The notes below the pieces were generated by a model that did no database searches, was not told where the DNA came from, and worked only from the letters and a program-made list of their open reading frames with translations. A stretch of 5,297 nucleotides of DNA from a virus (Duplodnaviria > Heunggongvirae > Uroviricota > Caudoviricetes), in the IMG/VR virus record IMGVR_UViG_2703719355_000016, positions 1 through 5,297 of that record. One strand, given 5' to 3'. Numbering within the stretch: position 1 is the stretch's first letter; each line of letters opens with the position of its first letter. Below are positions 1 through 5,297 of the stretch, piece by piece. The translations under genes were made by a program, and so were the position numbers.

Positions 1-3000
1 GGAATAACAATCTGCCGGTCAAACGGCTGATCGTCATAAACCCTGACGGTAATGGTCCCTGATGGCCACCGCTCCGGTGCCCGGGAGTCCCGCGGAAAAG
101 CCTTACCCACTGTTTTGACTATATCGCCTTCAATCTGGTTGGCTGACAGTTTCCCCTTAATCTGACAGTTCTCATTAATTGTGACATTGTTGAGCGTCCC
201 GGCGTTCGCATTCACACTGCCACTGATATCTGCATTTTTAGCGGTCAGCTTTCCGTCCGGTGTCAGGGAAAATGCCGGAGGATTACCGCCGCTGGTAATG
301 GTGGGAGCCGTCAGGCGTTTCAGGAACACGTCGTTCATGAATATCTGATCGCCCTGACCAACAAACATCGGCTTTGTGTTGCCATTCGCAGGATTAATCA
401 TCGCAATCCTGTCTGCCGCCAGCAGCACCTGACTCTGCATTCCTGCTGGCGTATTCTCAATACCGGCACCGATACCCGCAATATAAAGGCGTCCGTCCTT
501 CATCTGTTGCAGCTTCACAGCCCACATGCTGTTCAGATTATTATTTGTATCAACCTGAACCTTCTGTATCTGCTGGATCGCTGCACTCTGGTCTTCCAGT
601 TTCTTATTGACGGTCTGCGTGATTTCATTACTGACATCCGTGATGGACGTTCTGATTTCCGCCAGGTCAGGCGCAAGCTGACCGTTATCAATCTGAGTCC
701 ACAACTCCTGAGCCAGATGGGTTTTCCCTATCTCTCCTTTGAAAAAATCCAGATAGCCGGATGCATCATCACTCGGCTGGCCAACAGCCTCCACAAATGC
801 CGATTTGCCAACGGTGTTCACACTGCGGATATAAAAGTAATAATCATGGCCCGGTTTGATATTGATACTGGCGGCTATCCAGTACAGCCCCGTGCCAAGG
901 TAGCGGGCTGTGGTTTCAACCTGCCTGATATCGGTAATCCGCGTTTCCGAAAACCAGAACTCAAACTGTACCGTCGGGTCATACACCGCAAGACGCGGGA
1001 CCGCTGTTATCTGAAAATAGCCCGGTGTCAGCTCAATCTGTGACGGCGCTGCCGGTGCGGCAATCCGGAACGATACCGACGCCGGATCGCCCTGCTGCCC
1101 CCACGCATTTACCGCCCGGACTGTCAGCCTGTAGTTCCCCGGCGCCAGTTGCGTGAAGCGGTATGTGGTTTCCGTCGTCCGGGCCGTGCTGACCAGCCGC
1201 TCACTGCCGTCATCCGCGACCACGGTCAGGCGAAGCATAAAGCTCACGCCCTTCACCACCTTCGGCGTGTCCCATTTCGCCTGCGCCAGATACTGACCGT
1301 CAGCTGCGCTCACCTCCACCTTCAGGTGCTGCACTGCCGGAGGGATGACGCTGTTCAGGGTGCCTGACTGCGGCTCAAAGCTGGCCCCGTTATCCACGAT
1401 GGCTTCCTTTTCCGGTACGTGCTGCACCGCCGTGATGGCAAAGGTGCCGTCCGTGTTTTCCCGGATGGAGACACAGCGGAACAGGCGACGACGCAGTGAC
1501 GGCAGGGAGAGTCCCCATACACCGTATGTCTCCACACCATCAGGCAGGGTGCTGACCTGTATCCGGTCCGGCGCGGGGTGTGCAGTGATGGCCACGCTCA
1601 CCGGCTTACCGCTGCCGTTAATCAGGTTCACCGTGGCGGCACCTGTCTCCGGCAGGGTCACCTCACGGTCCAGTGTCAGGGTGCGGCTGGCGGCATCGAT
1701 GGACAGGATACGTCCGCCGGTCATGGTCCCGGCATAGTCGTTATCACAGATTTCAATAATGTCACCGGGTGTGTGACGCAGCCCCTGTGACCCGAGCGTG
1801 AAATCCACCGTCTGCGTTTCCAGCAGTCCGGTCTTTATCACCCACAGCCCGGCACGGTGGGCCTGACCGCGACTGGTGCAACCGAACGCATCCATCTTCA
1901 GCAGGTTGCGCCCGTAGCGCAGTATGGCTTCCGGGTCTTCCACCAGTTCCGTGGAGGTCTGCCAGCCGTTCTGCGGGTCGGTGTAATTCACCTCCACCGC
2001 CGTGTGGCGGTCCTTCAGGGCGCTGAAGCTGTAGCGAAACCCCACGCCGTTATCATCCACCACCACATCGCAGTTGGTGTACGGCCACACCACATCCGAC
2101 GGGCGGTCCTGAACGAACGTCAGCGTCTGGCCGTTCCATACCGGCATACAGCGCATCGCCGAGCAGAAATCACTGAGAACGTCCCACGCCTTACGCTGTT
2201 GTGACAGGTACGCATTAAAGGTCATCCGCGGCTCTGTGCCCCCGAAACCATCCGGGACCGTCTGGTCGCAGTACTGCCCGATGGCATACAGCGCCCACTT
2301 GTCAACATCCGCCGCCACCAGACGTTTTCCCATGCCGTAGCGCGGGTGAGTCAGCATGTCCCACAGGCACCAGGCCGGGTTGTTGCTGTATGCCGGTTTC
2401 AGGCTGCCGTCCCAGATGCCGCTGTACGTGCGTTTTTCCGGGTCATAGTTTGACGGTACCTGGATGATGCGACCGCGGATATGGTAGTTCACCGTCATCT
2501 GCTGACCGCCAAACTGCTCCGCATCCACCTGCAGCCCCACAATCGCCGTGTTCGGGTAGCACTGTTTCACATCGATGATTTCGGTGTATGACGACCAGAG
2601 CGTCTTATTCTGCAGCTGGTCCGAGGTGCTGTCCGCTGTCTCCCGGACCATCCGGATGTTAAAGGGCCGCTCAGGCAGATTCTCCAGAATCACCGACGCC
2701 AGGTACTGTGAGGTGGTCTTGCCGTTAATGGTGACATCCTTTTCCGTCACCCAGTTACCGTTACGCTGCAACTGAATCAGCAGTCGGACAGAAGAGGGAT
2801 TACGGTCGCCCTTTGAGGTGGTCTCCAACAGTGACTGCACCCCGAAGGTGACCCGCAGGCGGTCAATGTTCGCGGATGTAATGGTGCGCGTTACCGGCTT
2901 TGCCTTCGTCACTTCCACGCCCAGTCCGGTTTCAGCTCCGGAGGACTCAAAGCCTTCCGGTGGTGTCTGCTCCTGCTCCCCGGCGCGCCAGACCGCGGTC

Positions 3001-3191
3001 ACACCGTGTATCACAGGATTGCCGTCCGTGTCCGTCAGCGGGGTTTTGTTCACCAGGATACTCTGCAGCCCCTTCACCGGGCCTTCTATCGGTCCCTCAC
3101 CAATCGCATCAATCACACTCATCATCTGCGTGGATTTGAGATTATCCTTCGCCTCTCGAGGCGTGTGCGCCCTGCCGCCACCTTTGCCCAT
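1..3191 (-). CDS. J: Host-specificity / tail-tip central fibre protein J (lambda gpJ homologue). Partial: 1063 codons in the window, C-terminal ~70 codons (receptor-binding end) lie beyond coordinate 1.
   Basis: Reverse-complement translation from the ATG at 3191..3189 reads [38 protein letters not shown]... and stays open to coordinate 3 (3189 nt = 1063 codons). It is collinear with lambda gpJ as I recall it, including [27 protein letters not shown] and [19 protein letters not shown] near the C-terminal side. GAGAGGA lies 5 nt upstream of the ATG on the minus strand. The provided ORF track omits it only because the frame has no stop inside the window. Confidence 0.93.
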
Positions 3192-3196
3192 AATGT

Positions 3197-3203
3197 TCCT
3201 CTC
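3197..3203 (-). promoter_or_regulatory. Shine-Dalgarno sequence for J (GAGAGGA on the minus strand, 5-nt spacer to the ATG)
   Basis: Plus-strand tcctctc at 3197..3203 is GAGAGGA on the minus strand, immediately upstream of the J start codon at 3191..3189. Confidence 0.6.
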
Positions 3204-3315
3204 AATTGGTATTATTAATCGCAGTGATAGGATATTGCACAGCTATTGCGCGATATCATCAGAACGCTGTTTGTTACCCTGTAACCAGCAAGCTCAGTCT
3301 GTTAACGGAATTAAT
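3204..3315 (+). promoter_or_regulatory. Divergent intergenic region between the J start and sodC; presumed to hold the sodC promoter, position not resolved
   Basis: AT-rich 112-bp spacer between divergently oriented genes. Candidate hexamers are TTGCAC (3235..3240) and TATCAT (3254..3259), but they are only 13 nt apart, which is too short for a canonical sigma-70 promoter. I cannot place a -35/-10 pair confidently. Confidence 0.3.
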
Positions 3316-3320
3316 GAGGG
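3316..3320 (+). promoter_or_regulatory. Shine-Dalgarno sequence for sodC (GAGGG, 4-nt spacer to the ATG at 3325)
   Basis: Sequence ttaatGAGGGttttATG directly upstream of the sodC start. Confidence 0.65.
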
Positions 3321-3324
3321 TTTT

Positions 3325-3852
3325 ATGAAATGTAAAATCATTGCTGCCATTGCCATGCTGACAGCAGCATCATGCGGATACGCAGCAGAACAGGAAGTCC
3401 CAATGAACCTTGTCAGTGCTGACGGAAAAGAAGTCAGCATTGGAAAAATAACCATTCAGGAGACCCCCTACGGTCTGCTGTTCACACCAGCCCTTCACTC
3501 TCTGTCTGAAGGCATTCATGGTTTTCATGTGCACGAAAAAGGAAATTGCGCCCCGGCACTGAAAGACGGAAAACCGGTCGCAGCATTATCGGCTGGCGGT
3601 CACTTTGACCCGAAAAACACCGGCAAACATCTTGGCCCCTGGTCTCCGGATGGACACCTGGGCGACCTCCCTGCGCTGTTCGTGACGCATGACGGAAAAG
3701 CGAACTACCCGGTCCTGGCCCCGAGACTGAACTCATTAAAAGAGATTAAAGGGCGTTCTCTCATGCTTCATGCTGGCGGTGATAACCATCATGACCATCC
3801 GGAGCCCCTGGGCGGTGGTGGTGCGAGAATGGCCTGCGGCATCATTCAATAA
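3325..3852 (+). CDS. sodC: Periplasmic Cu,Zn superoxide dismutase (prophage-borne SodC), 175 aa with an N-terminal Sec signal peptide
   Basis: Translation [23 protein letters not shown]... has a signal-peptide-like N-terminus (basic n-region, hydrophobic core, GYA/AEQ cleavage context). Hallmark bacterial SodC motifs are present: [13 protein letters not shown] (copper His ligands plus disulfide Cys), GGHFDP, HLGDLP (zinc ligands) and [12 protein letters not shown] (catalytic Arg plus second disulfide Cys). The track ORF 2818..3852 is the same frame extended upstream; the ATG at 3325 is the first start with a ribosome-binding site. Stop TAA at 3850..3852. Confidence 0.93.
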
Positions 3853-3858
3853 TCAGTC

Positions 3859-3889
3859 AGGTAAGGGGCGGGCCCCTTACCTTTATTCC
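3859..3889 (+). terminator. Rho-independent terminator of sodC
   Basis: Perfect 10-bp GC-rich stem AGGTAAGGGG (3859..3868) / CCCCTTACCT (3873..3882), 4-nt loop CGGG, followed by TTATTCCT. It begins 7 nt after the sodC stop codon. Confidence 0.75.
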
Positions 3890-4418
3890 TCAGGACGATA
3901 AATCCTTTCTCCCTGAAAAGAACGGCACATCCTCCCTCTCTGAGTTAATGTTTTTGTCGTGACATAAGAATAATTCCTTACACTCAATCTTCGTAACGCT
4001 CCCGCAGTTCCTGTCCGTGAGTACTGCGGGATTTTTTCGCTTTTATGCCTGCCGCCCGATAACCACCACCTTCCCGTCACCGCCTTCATCACGGGTACTG
4101 ATGTCCTGGGAGATTCGCCGGGAGCCAACCAGCATTTCCCCGTAAGGCACCGGCATCGGGTTCCCCTGGGCAATCATGTTATCCAGCGACGAAAAGTACG
4201 TGTTCTGTTTACCGTTATCCGTTGCCCTGTATTCCGGTGTTTTTGGCTTCGGGGCCAGCATCTGTGCCACACCACCCAGTATCATGCTGGCACCCAGTGA
4301 AAACAGCATCGTGGTGGCAGAAAAACCACCGGCTGCCAGGGCTGAACCCCATAACGCCATTGATGCCCCGGCAGTGAAGAACGACCCCACGATGGCCGCC
4401 GCCCCCAGCACAATCTGC
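3872..4418. repeat. Direct repeat, copy A: 171-bp non-coding module plus the 3' 376 bp of gene I. Homology may continue to 4750, but its partner would lie beyond the window end.
   Basis: Aligns base-for-base with 4751..5297 at a constant offset of 879 bp and no indels. By-eye count: 15 mismatches in 547 bp (1 in the 171-bp non-coding part, 14 in the coding part). Confidence 0.95.
4000..4037 (+). terminator. Second plus-strand hairpin with T-tract (terminator-like) inside the 171-bp module, immediately 3' of the gene I stop
   Basis: 9-bp stem TCCCGCAGT (4000..4008) / ACTGCGGGA (4023..4031), 14-nt loop, then TTTTTT (4032..4037) and CGCTTTT. The T-tract is on the plus strand only; the minus strand has an A-run before the stem and no U-run after it. 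So it would stop plus-strand (sodC-direction or module-internal) transcription, not the tail operon. Confidence 0.5.
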
Positions 4419-4723
4419 AGTCCACCCTTTCCGGCCCCGGCCAGTCGCGGCACAATGTGGATGACCGTTCCCTCACCCAGCTGTTCGTGAAGACGGGCGT
4501 ACACCGCCTCCGGTGCCGTGTCATCACCGGCAATACGTATCTGGTACCAGCCTTCGTTCATCTGACGGCGAAAGCCCGGCATCTGCATCGACAGGGCGCG
4601 AATGGCTTCCGCTGCCGTGTTCACATACAGGCTGAGGCGGCGGCCAAATCGTTGTAAATCCCCGTGAAGGCAGATACGTGCCAGTGGCGGTGACGCCAGG
4701 CTGAATGCGTTCGTCGTTGCCAT
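4043..4723 (-). CDS. I: Tail assembly protein I (lambda gpI homologue), 226 aa
   Basis: Translation MATTNAFSLASPPLARICLHGDLQRFGRRLSLYVNTAAEAIRAL...NGKQNTYFSSLDNMIAQGNPMPVPYGEMLVGSRRISQDIS... is collinear with lambda gpI as recalled (ARICLYGDLQRFGRR, QNTYFSSLDNM, GA-rich hydrophobic segment). ATG at 4723..4721, stop TAA at 4045..4043. Confidence 0.9.
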   Translation of the reverse strand: MATTNAFSLASPPLARICLHGDLQRFGRRLSLYVNTAAEAIRALSMQMPGFRRQMNEGWYQIRIAGDDTAPEAVYARLHEQLGEGTVIHIVPRLAGAGKGGLQIVLGAAAIVGSFFTAGASMALWGSALAAGGFSATTMLFSLGASMILGGVAQMLAPKPKTPEYRATDNGKQNTYFSSLDNMIAQGNPMPVPYGEMLVGSRRISQDISTRDEGGDGKVVVIGRQA

Positions 4724-4734
4724 TTTTCGGAATA

Positions 4735-4742
4735 CCTCTCCC
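4735..4742 (-). promoter_or_regulatory. Possible Shine-Dalgarno sequence for gene I (GGGAGAGG on the minus strand, ~11-nt spacer)
   Basis: Plus-strand cctctccc at 4735..4742 is GGGAGAGG on the minus strand. The spacing to the ATG at 4723 is at the long end of the functional range. Confidence 0.4.
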
Positions 4743-4878
4743 GTTTACTAGCCCCTTACCTTTATTCCTCAGGACGATAAATCCTTTCTCCCTGAAAAGA
4801 ACGGCACATCCTCCCTCTCTGAGTTAATGTTTTTGTCGTGACATAAGAATAATTCCTTACACTCAATCTTCGTAACGC

Positions 4879-4916
4879 TCCCGCAGTTCCTGTCCGTGAG
4901 CACTGCGGGATTTTTT
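4879..4916 (+). terminator. Copy of the plus-strand hairpin plus T-tract within repeat copy B
   Basis: Same stem and T-tract as 4000..4037. The single non-coding mismatch between copies (4022 vs 4901, T to C) falls in the loop and preserves the stem. Confidence 0.45.
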
Positions 4917-4921
4917 CGCTT

Positions 4922-5297
4922 TTATGCCTGCCGCCCGATAACCACGACCTTTCCGCCCCCGCCTTCATCACGGGTACTGATGTCCTGGGAGATTCGCCGG
5001 GAGCCAACCAGCATTTCCCCGTAAGGCACCGGCATCGGGTTCCCCTGGGCAATCATGTTATCCAGCGAGGAAAAGTACGTGTTCTGTCTGCCGTTATCCG
5101 TTGCGCGGTAATCCGGTGTTTTTGCCTTCGGGGCCAGCATCTGGGCCACACCACCCAGAATCATGCTGGCCCCCAGTGAAAACAGCATCGTGGTGGCAGA
5201 AAAACCACCGGCTGCCAGGGCTGAACCCCATAACGCCATTGATGCCCCGGCAGTGAAGAACGACCCCACGATGGCCGCCGCCCCCAGCACAATCTGC
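4922..5297 (-). CDS. I: Second copy of tail assembly protein I. 5'-partial: the N-terminal part lies beyond the window end.
   Basis: In-frame translation ...LGAAAIVGSFFTAGASMALWGSALAAGGFSATTMLFSLGASMILGGVAQMLAPKAKTPDYRATDNGRQNTYFSSLDNMIAQGNPMPVPYGEMLVGSRRISQDISTRDEGGGGKVVVIGRQA* differs from the complete copy at 4 residues (KPK/KAK, E/D, K/R, D/G). Same stop context at 4922..4924. The frame is open to the window edge. Confidence 0.85.
   Translation of the reverse strand, partial: QIVLGAAAIVGSFFTAGASMALWGSALAAGGFSATTMLFSLGASMILGGVAQMLAPKAKTPDYRATDNGRQNTYFSSLDNMIAQGNPMPVPYGEMLVGSRRISQDISTRDEGGGGKVVVIGRQA

Follow-up and report, generated by a model that had tools for sequence, protein, structure and literature searches.

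Genes and signals of the I–J interval

The stretch of DNA analysed here (the window) is the entire 5,297-bp draft contig CYGN01000124.1. It carries tail genes J and I on the minus strand and, between them, a plus-strand sodC gene (Table 1). In matching genomes the J of the window is annotated as gpJ and its I as a tail assembly protein, and J gave six Pfam matches (FNIII-A_GpJ, Phage-tail_3, Ig_J, Ig_J_second, Phage_Tail_Tip, and Ig_GpJ_C). The open reading frame list and the sequence confirmed the original prediction that sodC lies antisense within an 851-bp I–J gap and has a ribosome-binding site, a signal peptide, and an intrinsic terminator of its own. The segment for which this was proposed, 3204–3889, comprises sodC together with its upstream region and terminator; comparison with relatives places the limits of the whole cassette at 3192 and about 3934. 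The GC content is 0.43–0.475 over positions 3101–3500, that is, the J-proximal edge and the first third of the cassette, versus 0.56–0.635 in the adjoining J and I.

Table 1 Positions of genes, signals, and repeats along the window
Feature	Position	Strand	Details and basis
Gene J, tail tip/host specificity	1–3191	−	5′ 3191 nt, 1063 codons open; leaves the left contig end
I-to-J gap	3192–4042		851 bp; open reading frame list and sequence
J Shine-Dalgarno sequence GAGAGGA	3197–3203	−	Sequence; inside cassette-side DNA
Invariant 32-nt block, candidate promoter/operator	3243–3274	+	Alignment with the cM8a variant, otherwise about 78% identical here
sodC ribosome-binding site GAGGG	3316–3320	+	4 nt before the ATG at 3325
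sodC (SodC-F1 type, Leu112)	3325–3852	+	175 codons and stop; 175 aa; Pfam Sod_Cu and PDB matches
Signal peptide, residues 1–20, then AEQ	3325–3384	+	Translation
Lipobox AASC, residues 14–17	3364–3375	+	Inside the sodC signal peptide
Predicted sodC intrinsic terminator	3859–3890	+	Hairpin 3859–3882, 10-bp stem, 4-nt loop, then UUUAUUCC
EcOnc22/23/24-family small-RNA relic	3935–4040	+	Body and terminator, promoterless; ends 2 nt before the I stop
Terminator of the small-RNA relic	Stem 4000–4008/4023–4031, U-run 4032–4037	+	
Gene I, tail assembly, complete	4043–4723	−	226 aa; Pfam Lambda_tail_I, E = 1.8e-16
3′ end of gene K	4724–4749	−	Last 26 nt of normal upstream sequence; comparison with L002; megablast match ends at 4749
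Second copy	4751–5297	−	3′ arm of the sodC terminator, small-RNA relic (to 4921), 3′ 375 nt of I (4922–5297); repeat family D1

At the position matching the J Shine-Dalgarno sequence, Fels-1 has CAGAGGGA, and the J leader of phages that lack sodC differs from that of the window (AAGAGGTGAT).

The hairpin of the sodC terminator folds at −17.4 kcal/mol (z = −2.19). On the opposite strand the same hairpin is followed by GACUGAUUA, without a U-run, and the terminator is predicted to act one way. Its U-tract is interrupted (UUUAUUCC), so that termination may be incomplete. In an Rfam search of the window with E values up to 1, the hairpin gave only a sub-threshold match to STnc400, which we treated as a chance match (23 bits against a cut-off of 80).

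A strict sigma-70 consensus scan of positions 3000–5297 returned no promoter, and a lenient scan returned only 8-of-12 candidates. When the region upstream of sodC was aligned with the corresponding DNA of strain cM8a, 105 of the 135 aligned columns were identical; GAGGG is kept in the variant, and the invariant block includes a −10-like TATCAT at 3254–3259. In published work, the 299 bp up to the ATG served as the sodC-F promoter of a lacZ fusion (D'Orazio et al., PMC2569942). Within these 299 bp, the sodC promoter would most likely be found around the block at 3243–3274; because no consensus sigma-70 promoter was found, this call rests on the weak −10, the conserved block, and the published reporter fragment, for which the RpoS comparison is given as ‘data not shown’. 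Weak FNR-like (TTGCG-N4-ATCAT) and PhoP-like (TGTTTG-N6-TGTAAC) motifs were also seen by eye.

The SodC protein

The sodC product matches Pfam Sod_Cu (PF00080) over profile positions 3–133 of 133 (E = 3.9e-32; 111.9 bits against a cut-off of 28.9) and gives ungapped alignments with the PDB entries 1z9n, 2wwn, and 1eqw (E about 1e-62). Its Cu ligands (H68, H70, H93, and H149) and Zn ligands (H93, H102, H111, and D114), with H93 bridging, align with the same residues in 1EQW, 1Z9N, and 2WWN and map to H46/H48/H63/H120 (Cu) and H63/H71/H80/D83 (Zn) of human SOD1. The disulfide C75–C171 aligns with Cys residues of SodCI (1EQW), and the catalytic R168 and C171 align with R143 and C146 of SOD1. No ligand or disulfide cysteine has been lost; the original prediction that the catalytic and metal-ligand motifs are intact holds, and, judged from these alignments, the protein is a Cu,Zn superoxide dismutase with all ligands, cysteines, and the catalytic Arg in place.

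The protein is 100% identical to ECs_1989 of E. coli O157:H7 Sakai and carries Leu112, the residue given for SodC-F1 (D'Orazio et al., 2008, BMC Microbiol 8:166, PMC2569942). An activity of 19,380 U/mg is published for O157 SodC-F1 (PMC2569942), and the window protein, being identical to ECs_1989, would be expected to have superoxide dismutase activity. The O157 prophage SodC is dimeric and resistant to protease and EDTA; it is made in log-phase, stationary-phase, and anaerobic cultures, is RpoS-independent, and is enriched in intracellular bacteria (PMC2569942).

It could be argued that sodC is an intact but inert passenger or pseudogene, neither expressed nor useful, as the consensus scan found no promoter and O157 triple sodC mutants are no more sensitive than single or double mutants (PMC2569942). 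We consider this very improbable. The identical enzyme, epitope-tagged, is made from the chromosome in uninduced cultures and is active, and deletion of the O157 prophage sodC genes results in greater sensitivity to hydrogen peroxide and lower survival (PMC2569942). Moreover, the I/J site of strain cM8a holds a sodC allele of 80.6% identity and, because all ligands are kept in this allele, purifying selection on sodC is indicated.

A predicted export signal stands at the N-terminus, as in bacterial periplasmic SodC proteins; either signal peptidase I can cut behind residue 20 or signal peptidase II can cut in front of Cys17. Because the lipobox AASC occupies residues 14–17, part of SodC is a membrane lipoprotein and the enzyme is not purely periplasmic-soluble. 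The periplasmic SodC originally predicted thus stands for a soluble part but not for the protein as a whole. Both the partition of the O157 prophage SodC between the soluble periplasm and the membrane and its dual processing by signal peptidases I and II have been shown experimentally (PMC2569942).

The cassette in an occupied spacer

The term moron, or lysogenic-conversion, gene follows the usage of Juhala, Hendrix et al. (2000). The sodC cassette is extra DNA between genes that are neighbours in related phages (JLK-2012, PhiR5_1, and Sakai Sp11/14/15); it has its own terminator, made of the hairpin at 3859–3882 and a U-rich tract, and it shows a deviant base composition with sharp identity boundaries. 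Insert position, terminator, and boundaries all bear out the original view of a moron cassette between I and J. Of 5,426 complete E. coli genomes, 547 contain the 743-bp cassette, and 542 records reach an identity of at least 99%. Over 3192–3934 it is 100% identical to Sakai Sp10, to the Stx2a phage Stx2_EH2201, and to NZ_CP148401; in the same comparison the flanking J is 95.5–100% and I 94.9–97% identical. In Sakai, ECs_1989 lies between I (ECs_1987) and J (ECs_1990). The segment is almost certainly sodC-F, a known prophage cargo of enterohaemorrhagic E. coli and related strains, in the I–J position where it is usually found. The original observation is correct but ordinary, as D'Orazio et al. 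have already characterised SodC-F1 by biochemical and genetic means.

Lambda had served as the reference for the spacer. I and J are indeed neighbours in lambda, separated by 60 bp; however, the nearest relatives that lack sodC and have the same I and J (the five phages and prophages named above) have a 240-bp spacer, which carries the gene for an Hfq-dependent small RNA, EcOnc22/23/24. Because these relatives have such a spacer, the cassette replaced the J-proximal part of an interval that was already occupied. EcOnc22 is a real Hfq-dependent RNA of roughly 85 nt (Tree et al., 2014, Mol Cell 55:199). The original prediction missed the small RNA of the 240-bp spacer, the promoterless relic at 3935–4040, and the second copy at 4751–5297.

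The coordinates in Table S2 of Tree et al. are about 140–146 bp lower than those of NC_002695.2 and were calibrated by Rfam matches to AgvB and Esr41. After calibration, the Hfq peaks of EcOnc22/23/24 fall in the I–J gaps of Sp15/Sp14/Sp11. Without calibration, the EcOnc22 peak would fall within the half of the spacer nearer to J; with it, the peak falls on the predicted transcript. Rfam searches of the window (E up to 1) and of five related I–J loci found no family for the spacer element. An assignment to AgvB/AsxR or to the Pas small RNAs was rejected, as these RNAs are encoded downstream of PR′ and Q rather than among the tail genes, and the Rfam AgvB match falls at another place. A full-text literature search with the small-RNA sequence gave no match, and no target of the EcOnc22/23/24 family is known from the literature.

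The relic in the window retains the body and terminator of this family, directly next to the I stop and on the strand opposite the tail genes; it is 97% identical to the I-proximal part of the JLK-2012 spacer, and its terminator folds at −16.9 kcal/mol (z = −3.75). A TTCACA-N16-TATAAT/AATAAT promoter is present about 7 nt upstream of the body in all 10 intact small-RNA units aligned, and in the same unit alignment both window copies have unrelated sequence in its place. cM8a keeps this promoter, whereas the window has a 45-bp gap there and a mutated −10.

These differences raise the question of whether sodC and the relic form a two-gene plus-strand unit, in which the promoterless EcOnc22-family RNA would be made only through a leaky sodC terminator, end at 4000–4037, and be a 3′-UTR-derived Hfq-binding RNA whose expression accompanies that of sodC. 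The small-RNA body and terminator are kept at 97–99% identity right after sodC on the same strand, the U-tract of the sodC terminator is interrupted, cM8a shows what is presumably the ancestral layout (a complete, promoter-bearing small-RNA gene after sodC), and, as noted, EcOnc22 is a real RNA. Nevertheless, we regard such a unit as doubtful. Promoter loss usually means gene decay, and the near-clonal identity of the cassette may reflect recent spread rather than selection; in addition, Table S2 of Tree et al. has no Hfq peak for the I–sodC spacer of Sp10, a weak argument as their filter disfavoured sites near same-strand coding sequences. The corresponding history is likewise improbable in our view: a 45-bp deletion would have removed the small-RNA promoter, the small RNA would come from sodC read-through or the 3′-UTR only, and the I–J gap of lambdoid prophages would be a shared slot in which sodC alleles and small-RNA genes, one to four in tandem, replace each other. 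If true, an Hfq-dependent regulator would be tied to the expression of an oxidative-stress gene.

We also considered whether the 907-bp I–J gap of RM13322 (L009) contains a decayed sodC pseudogene. It shows 91% identity with many single-base indels, and J is annotated as frameshifted there too; a noisy assembly is more likely, and this gap was left out.

The second copy at the right end of the window differs from 3872–4418 by 15 mismatches in 547 nt (97% identical), and the two copies of I are different alleles. Collinearity with all reference prophages stops at 4749. The 4749|4750 junction is absent from five collections: exact matching found none in viral, genome, or metagenome contigs, and megablast against complete E. 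coli genomes and phages gave no single-piece match. Since no other collection contains the junction and the window corresponds to an entire draft contig, the second copy is plausibly an assembly artefact. Given this abnormal junction, the contig is not fully trustworthy, with only its last 547 bases suspect. The same two facts could be taken to mean that the contig is a chimera and that the I–sodC–J arrangement itself is unreal. This is hardly credible, as positions 1–4749 are collinear with NZ_CP148401 (99.2% over the whole-window match) and the I–sodC–J segment is collinear with 541 complete genomes.

Proposed course and known systems

In sum, a cassette of about 740 bp, consisting of a control region, a ribosome-binding site, sodC, and a one-way terminator, sits antisense in the I–J slot of a lambdoid prophage. 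As reported for O157, its product is a Sec-exported dimeric Cu,Zn superoxide dismutase, part of it free in the periplasm and part lipid-anchored. In the lysogen, the late operon would be silent and sodC transcribed from its own promoter, so that SodC could remove superoxide at the cell envelope. After induction, as lambda biology suggests, Q-antiterminated late transcription would cross the cassette antisense to reach J, which would use its own Shine-Dalgarno sequence. Convergent transcription, as originally suggested, might plausibly couple sodC to the lysogenic or lytic state. Because the cassette is identical between prophages whose I and J differ by 3–5%, recombination probably carries it from one tail module to another.

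Prophage sodC is an established accessory oxidative-stress defence in enterohaemorrhagic E. coli and, as sodCI, in Salmonella. From the find it can be concluded only that a lambdoid prophage of the enterohaemorrhagic/enteropathogenic E. coli type, with a SodC-F1-type allele, is present in the source strain; the find itself holds no new biology. What it adds is context: the I–J gap is a polymorphic slot for cargo, filled either by sodC alleles sharing 80% identity or by between one and four genes for small RNAs. The promoterless small RNA next to this common cassette poses a cheap, testable question on prophage small-RNA function and decay.

Among known systems, the small RNAs EcOnc22/23/24 of Sakai Sp15/Sp14/Sp11 (Tree et al., 2014, Table S2) are homologous to 3935–4040 and have the same place and strand; unlike them, the window copy lacks a promoter. 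The chromosomal SodC of E. coli (1ESO) has the same fold and ligands, with about 61% identity of the mature proteins, but it is monomeric, RpoS-dependent, and made only in aerobic stationary phase; it is also entirely soluble and has lower activity and stability (PMC2569942). The kinship with prophage sodC genes of Salmonella and enterohaemorrhagic E. coli that was originally proposed is supported throughout. Gifsy-2 sodCI (STM1044; 1EQW), a virulence factor, lies antisense to tail genes and encodes a prophage Cu,Zn superoxide dismutase that is 58.8% identical to the window protein and has the same set of ligands; SodCI is dimeric and similarly regulated (D'Orazio et al., PMC2569942). The parallel drawn with Gifsy-2 therefore stands for homology but not for site, as sodCI lies between M/lom and L. 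The true positional parallel is Fels-1 sodCIII (STM0924), which also lies between I and J and, in the same orientation as here, runs antisense to the tail operon; its J leader is similar too. It differs from the window in having only 60.5% amino acid identity, unrelated non-coding DNA upstream and downstream, and a stop 53 bp from the I stop with no small-RNA relic. The closest system is SodC-F1/SodC-F2 of E. coli O157:H7 (Sakai ECs_1989 in Sp10; EDL933 CP-933R and CP-933V according to D'Orazio et al.). The window and Sakai Sp10 share the protein with Leu112, the cassette, its place between I and J, and its antisense orientation, whereas the I and J alleles of the window differ by 3–5% and, upstream of I, the window repeats part of I and the spacer.

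An antisense superoxide dismutase gene between tail genes I and J

The window is the entire draft contig CYGN01000124.1 of the E. coli assembly GCA_001286505.1 (5,297 bp) and carries, on its minus strand, the distal tail region of a lambdoid prophage. The original prediction placed a plus-strand sodC gene with its own ribosome-binding site, signal peptide and intrinsic terminator in an 851-bp space between the I stop and the J start. The space was measured at exactly this length and each of the elements was located in the sequence, confirming the presence of an antisense sodC between I and J. The GC content is 0.43-0.475 over positions 3101-3500, compared with 0.56-0.635 in the adjoining tail genes. 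A separate fall in GC, from about 0.62 to about 0.50, was seen within 1-900, in the part of J for the C-terminal tip/receptor-binding region, and suggests a mosaic joint inside J.

Features of the sodC region (window positions)
Feature	Position	Strand	Description
Gene I	4723..4043	-	226 aa; Pfam Lambda_tail_I
Gene J	starts 3191; left end of window reached	-	1063 codons seen; six J-specific Pfam domains
I-J gap	3192-4042		851 bp
sodC ORF	3325-3852	+	175 aa, Cu,Zn superoxide dismutase; Pfam Sod_Cu, E 3.9e-32
sodC ribosome-binding site	4 nt 5' of ATG	+	GAGGG
sodC signal peptide	protein N-terminus	+	
sodC terminator hairpin	3859-3882	+	10-bp GC-rich stem, -17.4 kcal/mol, then UUUAUUCC

The encoded protein gave gap-free alignments with bacterial SodC proteins of known structure, among them 1Z9N from Haemophilus, 2WWN from Yersinia and Salmonella SodCI 1EQW (E ~1e-62). 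By alignment with human SOD1, we mapped the copper ligands to H68, H70, H93 and H149, the zinc ligands to H93, H102, H111 and D114, the disulfide to C75-C171 and the catalytic residue to R168, the SOD1 counterparts being H46/H48/H63/H120 (Cu), H63/H71/H80/D83 (Zn), C146 and R143. None was lost in these alignments, and the predicted integrity of the catalytic and metal-ligand motifs held. The protein matches, at 100% identity, ECs_1989 of prophage Sp10 in E. coli O157:H7 Sakai, which likewise lies in antisense between I (ECs_1987) and J (ECs_1990). Its residue 112 is Leu, the residue of SodC-F1, one of the two O157:H7 prophage enzymes named by D'Orazio et al. (2008; PMC2569942), while Pro112 of the other, SodC-F2, is present in strain 143 (locus L001, 6226-6753). 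The L112P substitution falls within the conserved HLGDLP motif, flanked by zinc ligand H111 on one side and D114 on the other; SodC-F1 alone was purified, and the effect of L112P on metal binding is apparently unstudied.

As these prophage genes were characterized by D'Orazio et al. (PMC2569942), the gene and its function are already known, and the sodC feature is consequently of low interest. According to that study, SodC-F1 is a dimer with an activity of 19,380 U/mg, against 6,290 U/mg for the chromosomal SodC; it is resistant to EDTA as well as to proteinase K, with melting at 78-87 degrees C. The tagged O157 prophage SodC was produced without induction in log phase, in stationary phase and during anaerobic growth, its expression was RpoS-independent, and it was enriched in bacteria recovered from within Caco-2 cells; prophage sodC deletion mutants survived hydrogen peroxide less well. 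Through the lipobox AASC (residues 14-17 of the window protein) part of the SodC is membrane-anchored, the remainder being freed by cleavage between residues 20 and 21 (PMC2569942). Apart from corrections of detail, the original interpretation of the cassette (3192 to about 3934) is supported.

Transcription of the cassette

In the published lacZ fusion, a 299-bp fragment up to the start codon served as the sodC promoter (PMC2569942). A promoter scan found no consensus sigma-70 promoter for sodC. Comparison with the diverged cassette of E. coli strain cM8a showed that a 32-nt block at 3243-3274, containing a TATCAT hexamer at 3254-3259, is identical in both variants, although the upstream region around it is only about 78% identical; this block is the best promoter lead, as a candidate only. 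An FNR-like TTGCG-N4-ATCAT occurs in the block, an inverted repeat, GTTAC-CCT-GTAAC, lies just downstream at 3273-3285, and a PhoP-box-like TGTTTG-N6-TGTAAC spans 3268-3285.

In lambda, Q modification makes RNA polymerase that has started at PR' insensitive to terminators. By analogy, late transcription would cross the cassette in antisense and so reach J, which has its own Shine-Dalgarno sequence (3197-3203). No good terminator was seen on the minus strand of the cassette, and the sodC terminator hairpin, read on that strand, is followed by no U-run. The original suggestion that convergent transcription could make sodC expression depend on whether the phage is in its lytic or its lysogenic state is reasonable as a hypothesis. 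An orientation antisense to the tail operon is shared by the three prophage sodC genes compared (O157 type, Fels-1 and Gifsy-2).

Small-RNA genes in the I-J spacer and the right end of the contig

The distance between I and J is 60 bp in lambda, 240 bp in the nearest sodC-less relatives (JLK-2012, PhiR5_1, Sakai Sp11/Sp14/Sp15), 343 bp in ST131-like strains and 935 bp in STEC1588. In these spacers longer than that of lambda, the sodC-less site is not empty. Their I-proximal part is a compact plus-strand small-RNA unit, in which a promoter graded as good (TTCACA, 16 nt, TATAAT or AATAAT) precedes a body about 90 nt long and a terminator (CCCGCAG...CTGCGGG, then a T-run) reaching up to the I stop codon. 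In STEC1588 the gap (L010, 901-1835) consists of four unannotated tandem units of about 230 bp with conserved promoter and terminator and differing bodies, an arrangement that resembles an array of small-RNA gene variants. Hfq cross-link peaks have been reported for EcOnc22 (Sp15), EcOnc23 (Sp14) and EcOnc24 (Sp11), and EcOnc22 is about 85 nt by northern blotting and destabilized without Hfq (Tree et al., 2014, Table S2). The Table S2 coordinates lie about 140-146 bp below those of NC_002695.2, as calibrated by the Rfam AgvB and Esr41 matches, and the corrected peaks coincide with the transcripts predicted between I and J in Sp15, Sp14 and Sp11. Rfam searches of the window and related I-J loci revealed no model for this family, for which a review from 2021 gives no known target. 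On the tail-gene strand of the sodC-less spacers (L012, 1237-1262, and the equivalent in L003/L004), a GC-rich hairpin, CAGGCACC...GGTGCCTG, is followed by a T-run, forming an intrinsic-terminator-like site within the late operon directly before the J ribosome-binding site; the sodC cassette stands in its place.

In the window, a body and terminator 97-99% identical to those of intact units remain at 3935-4040 (+), on the sodC strand and 50 nt past the sodC terminator. Alignment with intact units showed that the promoter is absent. In cM8a, sodC and its terminator are followed by a small-RNA gene that is intact, promoter included. Compared with it, the window has a mutated -10, and a 45-bp gap covers the -35 region and the spacer. 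Since cM8a keeps the intact layout and the window has the gap, the cassette would, judging from these sequences, first have lain between J and the small-RNA gene, with the promoter lost later in the common O157-type cassette. The relic is either dead or made by read-through from sodC. No Hfq peak is listed at the Sp10 relic in Table S2 of Tree et al. (2014), whose filter disfavoured such positions. The fate of this promoter-less gene beside sodC is the sole point of some interest remaining.

A second copy of the relic (4814-4919) belongs to an anomalous right end. At 4749, where normal sequence runs on into gene K, collinearity with every reference ends, and from 4751 a second copy of 3872-4418 (15 mismatches in 547 nt, 97% identical) takes the place of K upstream of I. 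The repeat begins with the sodC terminator's 3' arm and continues through the relic into the 3' part of I, the two I copies being different alleles. The junction (4749/4750) coincides precisely with the first base of the terminator 3' arm, with no microhomology, and was not found in 5,426 complete E. coli genomes, the phage collection, or the viral, genome and metagenome contig collections. As the window is one short draft contig in its entirety, a strain-private tandem duplication is less likely than a mis-join in assembly or gap filling; the sodC finding is unaffected under either explanation. Two near-identical 96-aa minus-strand ORFs (3883-4173 and 4762-5052), which cross the spacer and overlap the I 3' end out of frame, are probably spurious, arising from the duplication and GC-rich overlap.

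Distribution of the cassette and comparison with other prophage sodC genes

The cassette is present in 547 of 5,426 complete E. coli genomes, at 724 places with up to five per genome, and is at least 99% identical in 542 records; matching I and J flanks, with or without it, occur in 1,836 genomes. Positions 3192-3934 are 100% identical in Sakai Sp10, the Stx2a phage Stx2_EH2201 and NZ_CP148401, while identity in the same three is 95.5-100% for the adjoining 1 kb of J and 94.9-97% for I. By sequence comparison, this is the pattern expected for a moron swapped among mosaic tail modules. The proposal that sodC is a moron gene is supported by the identical cassette between diverged flanks and by a second allele at the same site.

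This second allele, in cM8a (L019, 2495-3398), has 80.6% amino-acid identity and keeps all ligands and the lipobox Cys; its coding sequence is only 79% identical to that of the window, although J and I are 95% and 91.5% identical. Salmonella Fels-1 sodCIII (60.5% identity) shares the I/J site and the antisense orientation, whereas Gifsy-2 sodCI (58.8%) occupies a different site, between M/lom and L.
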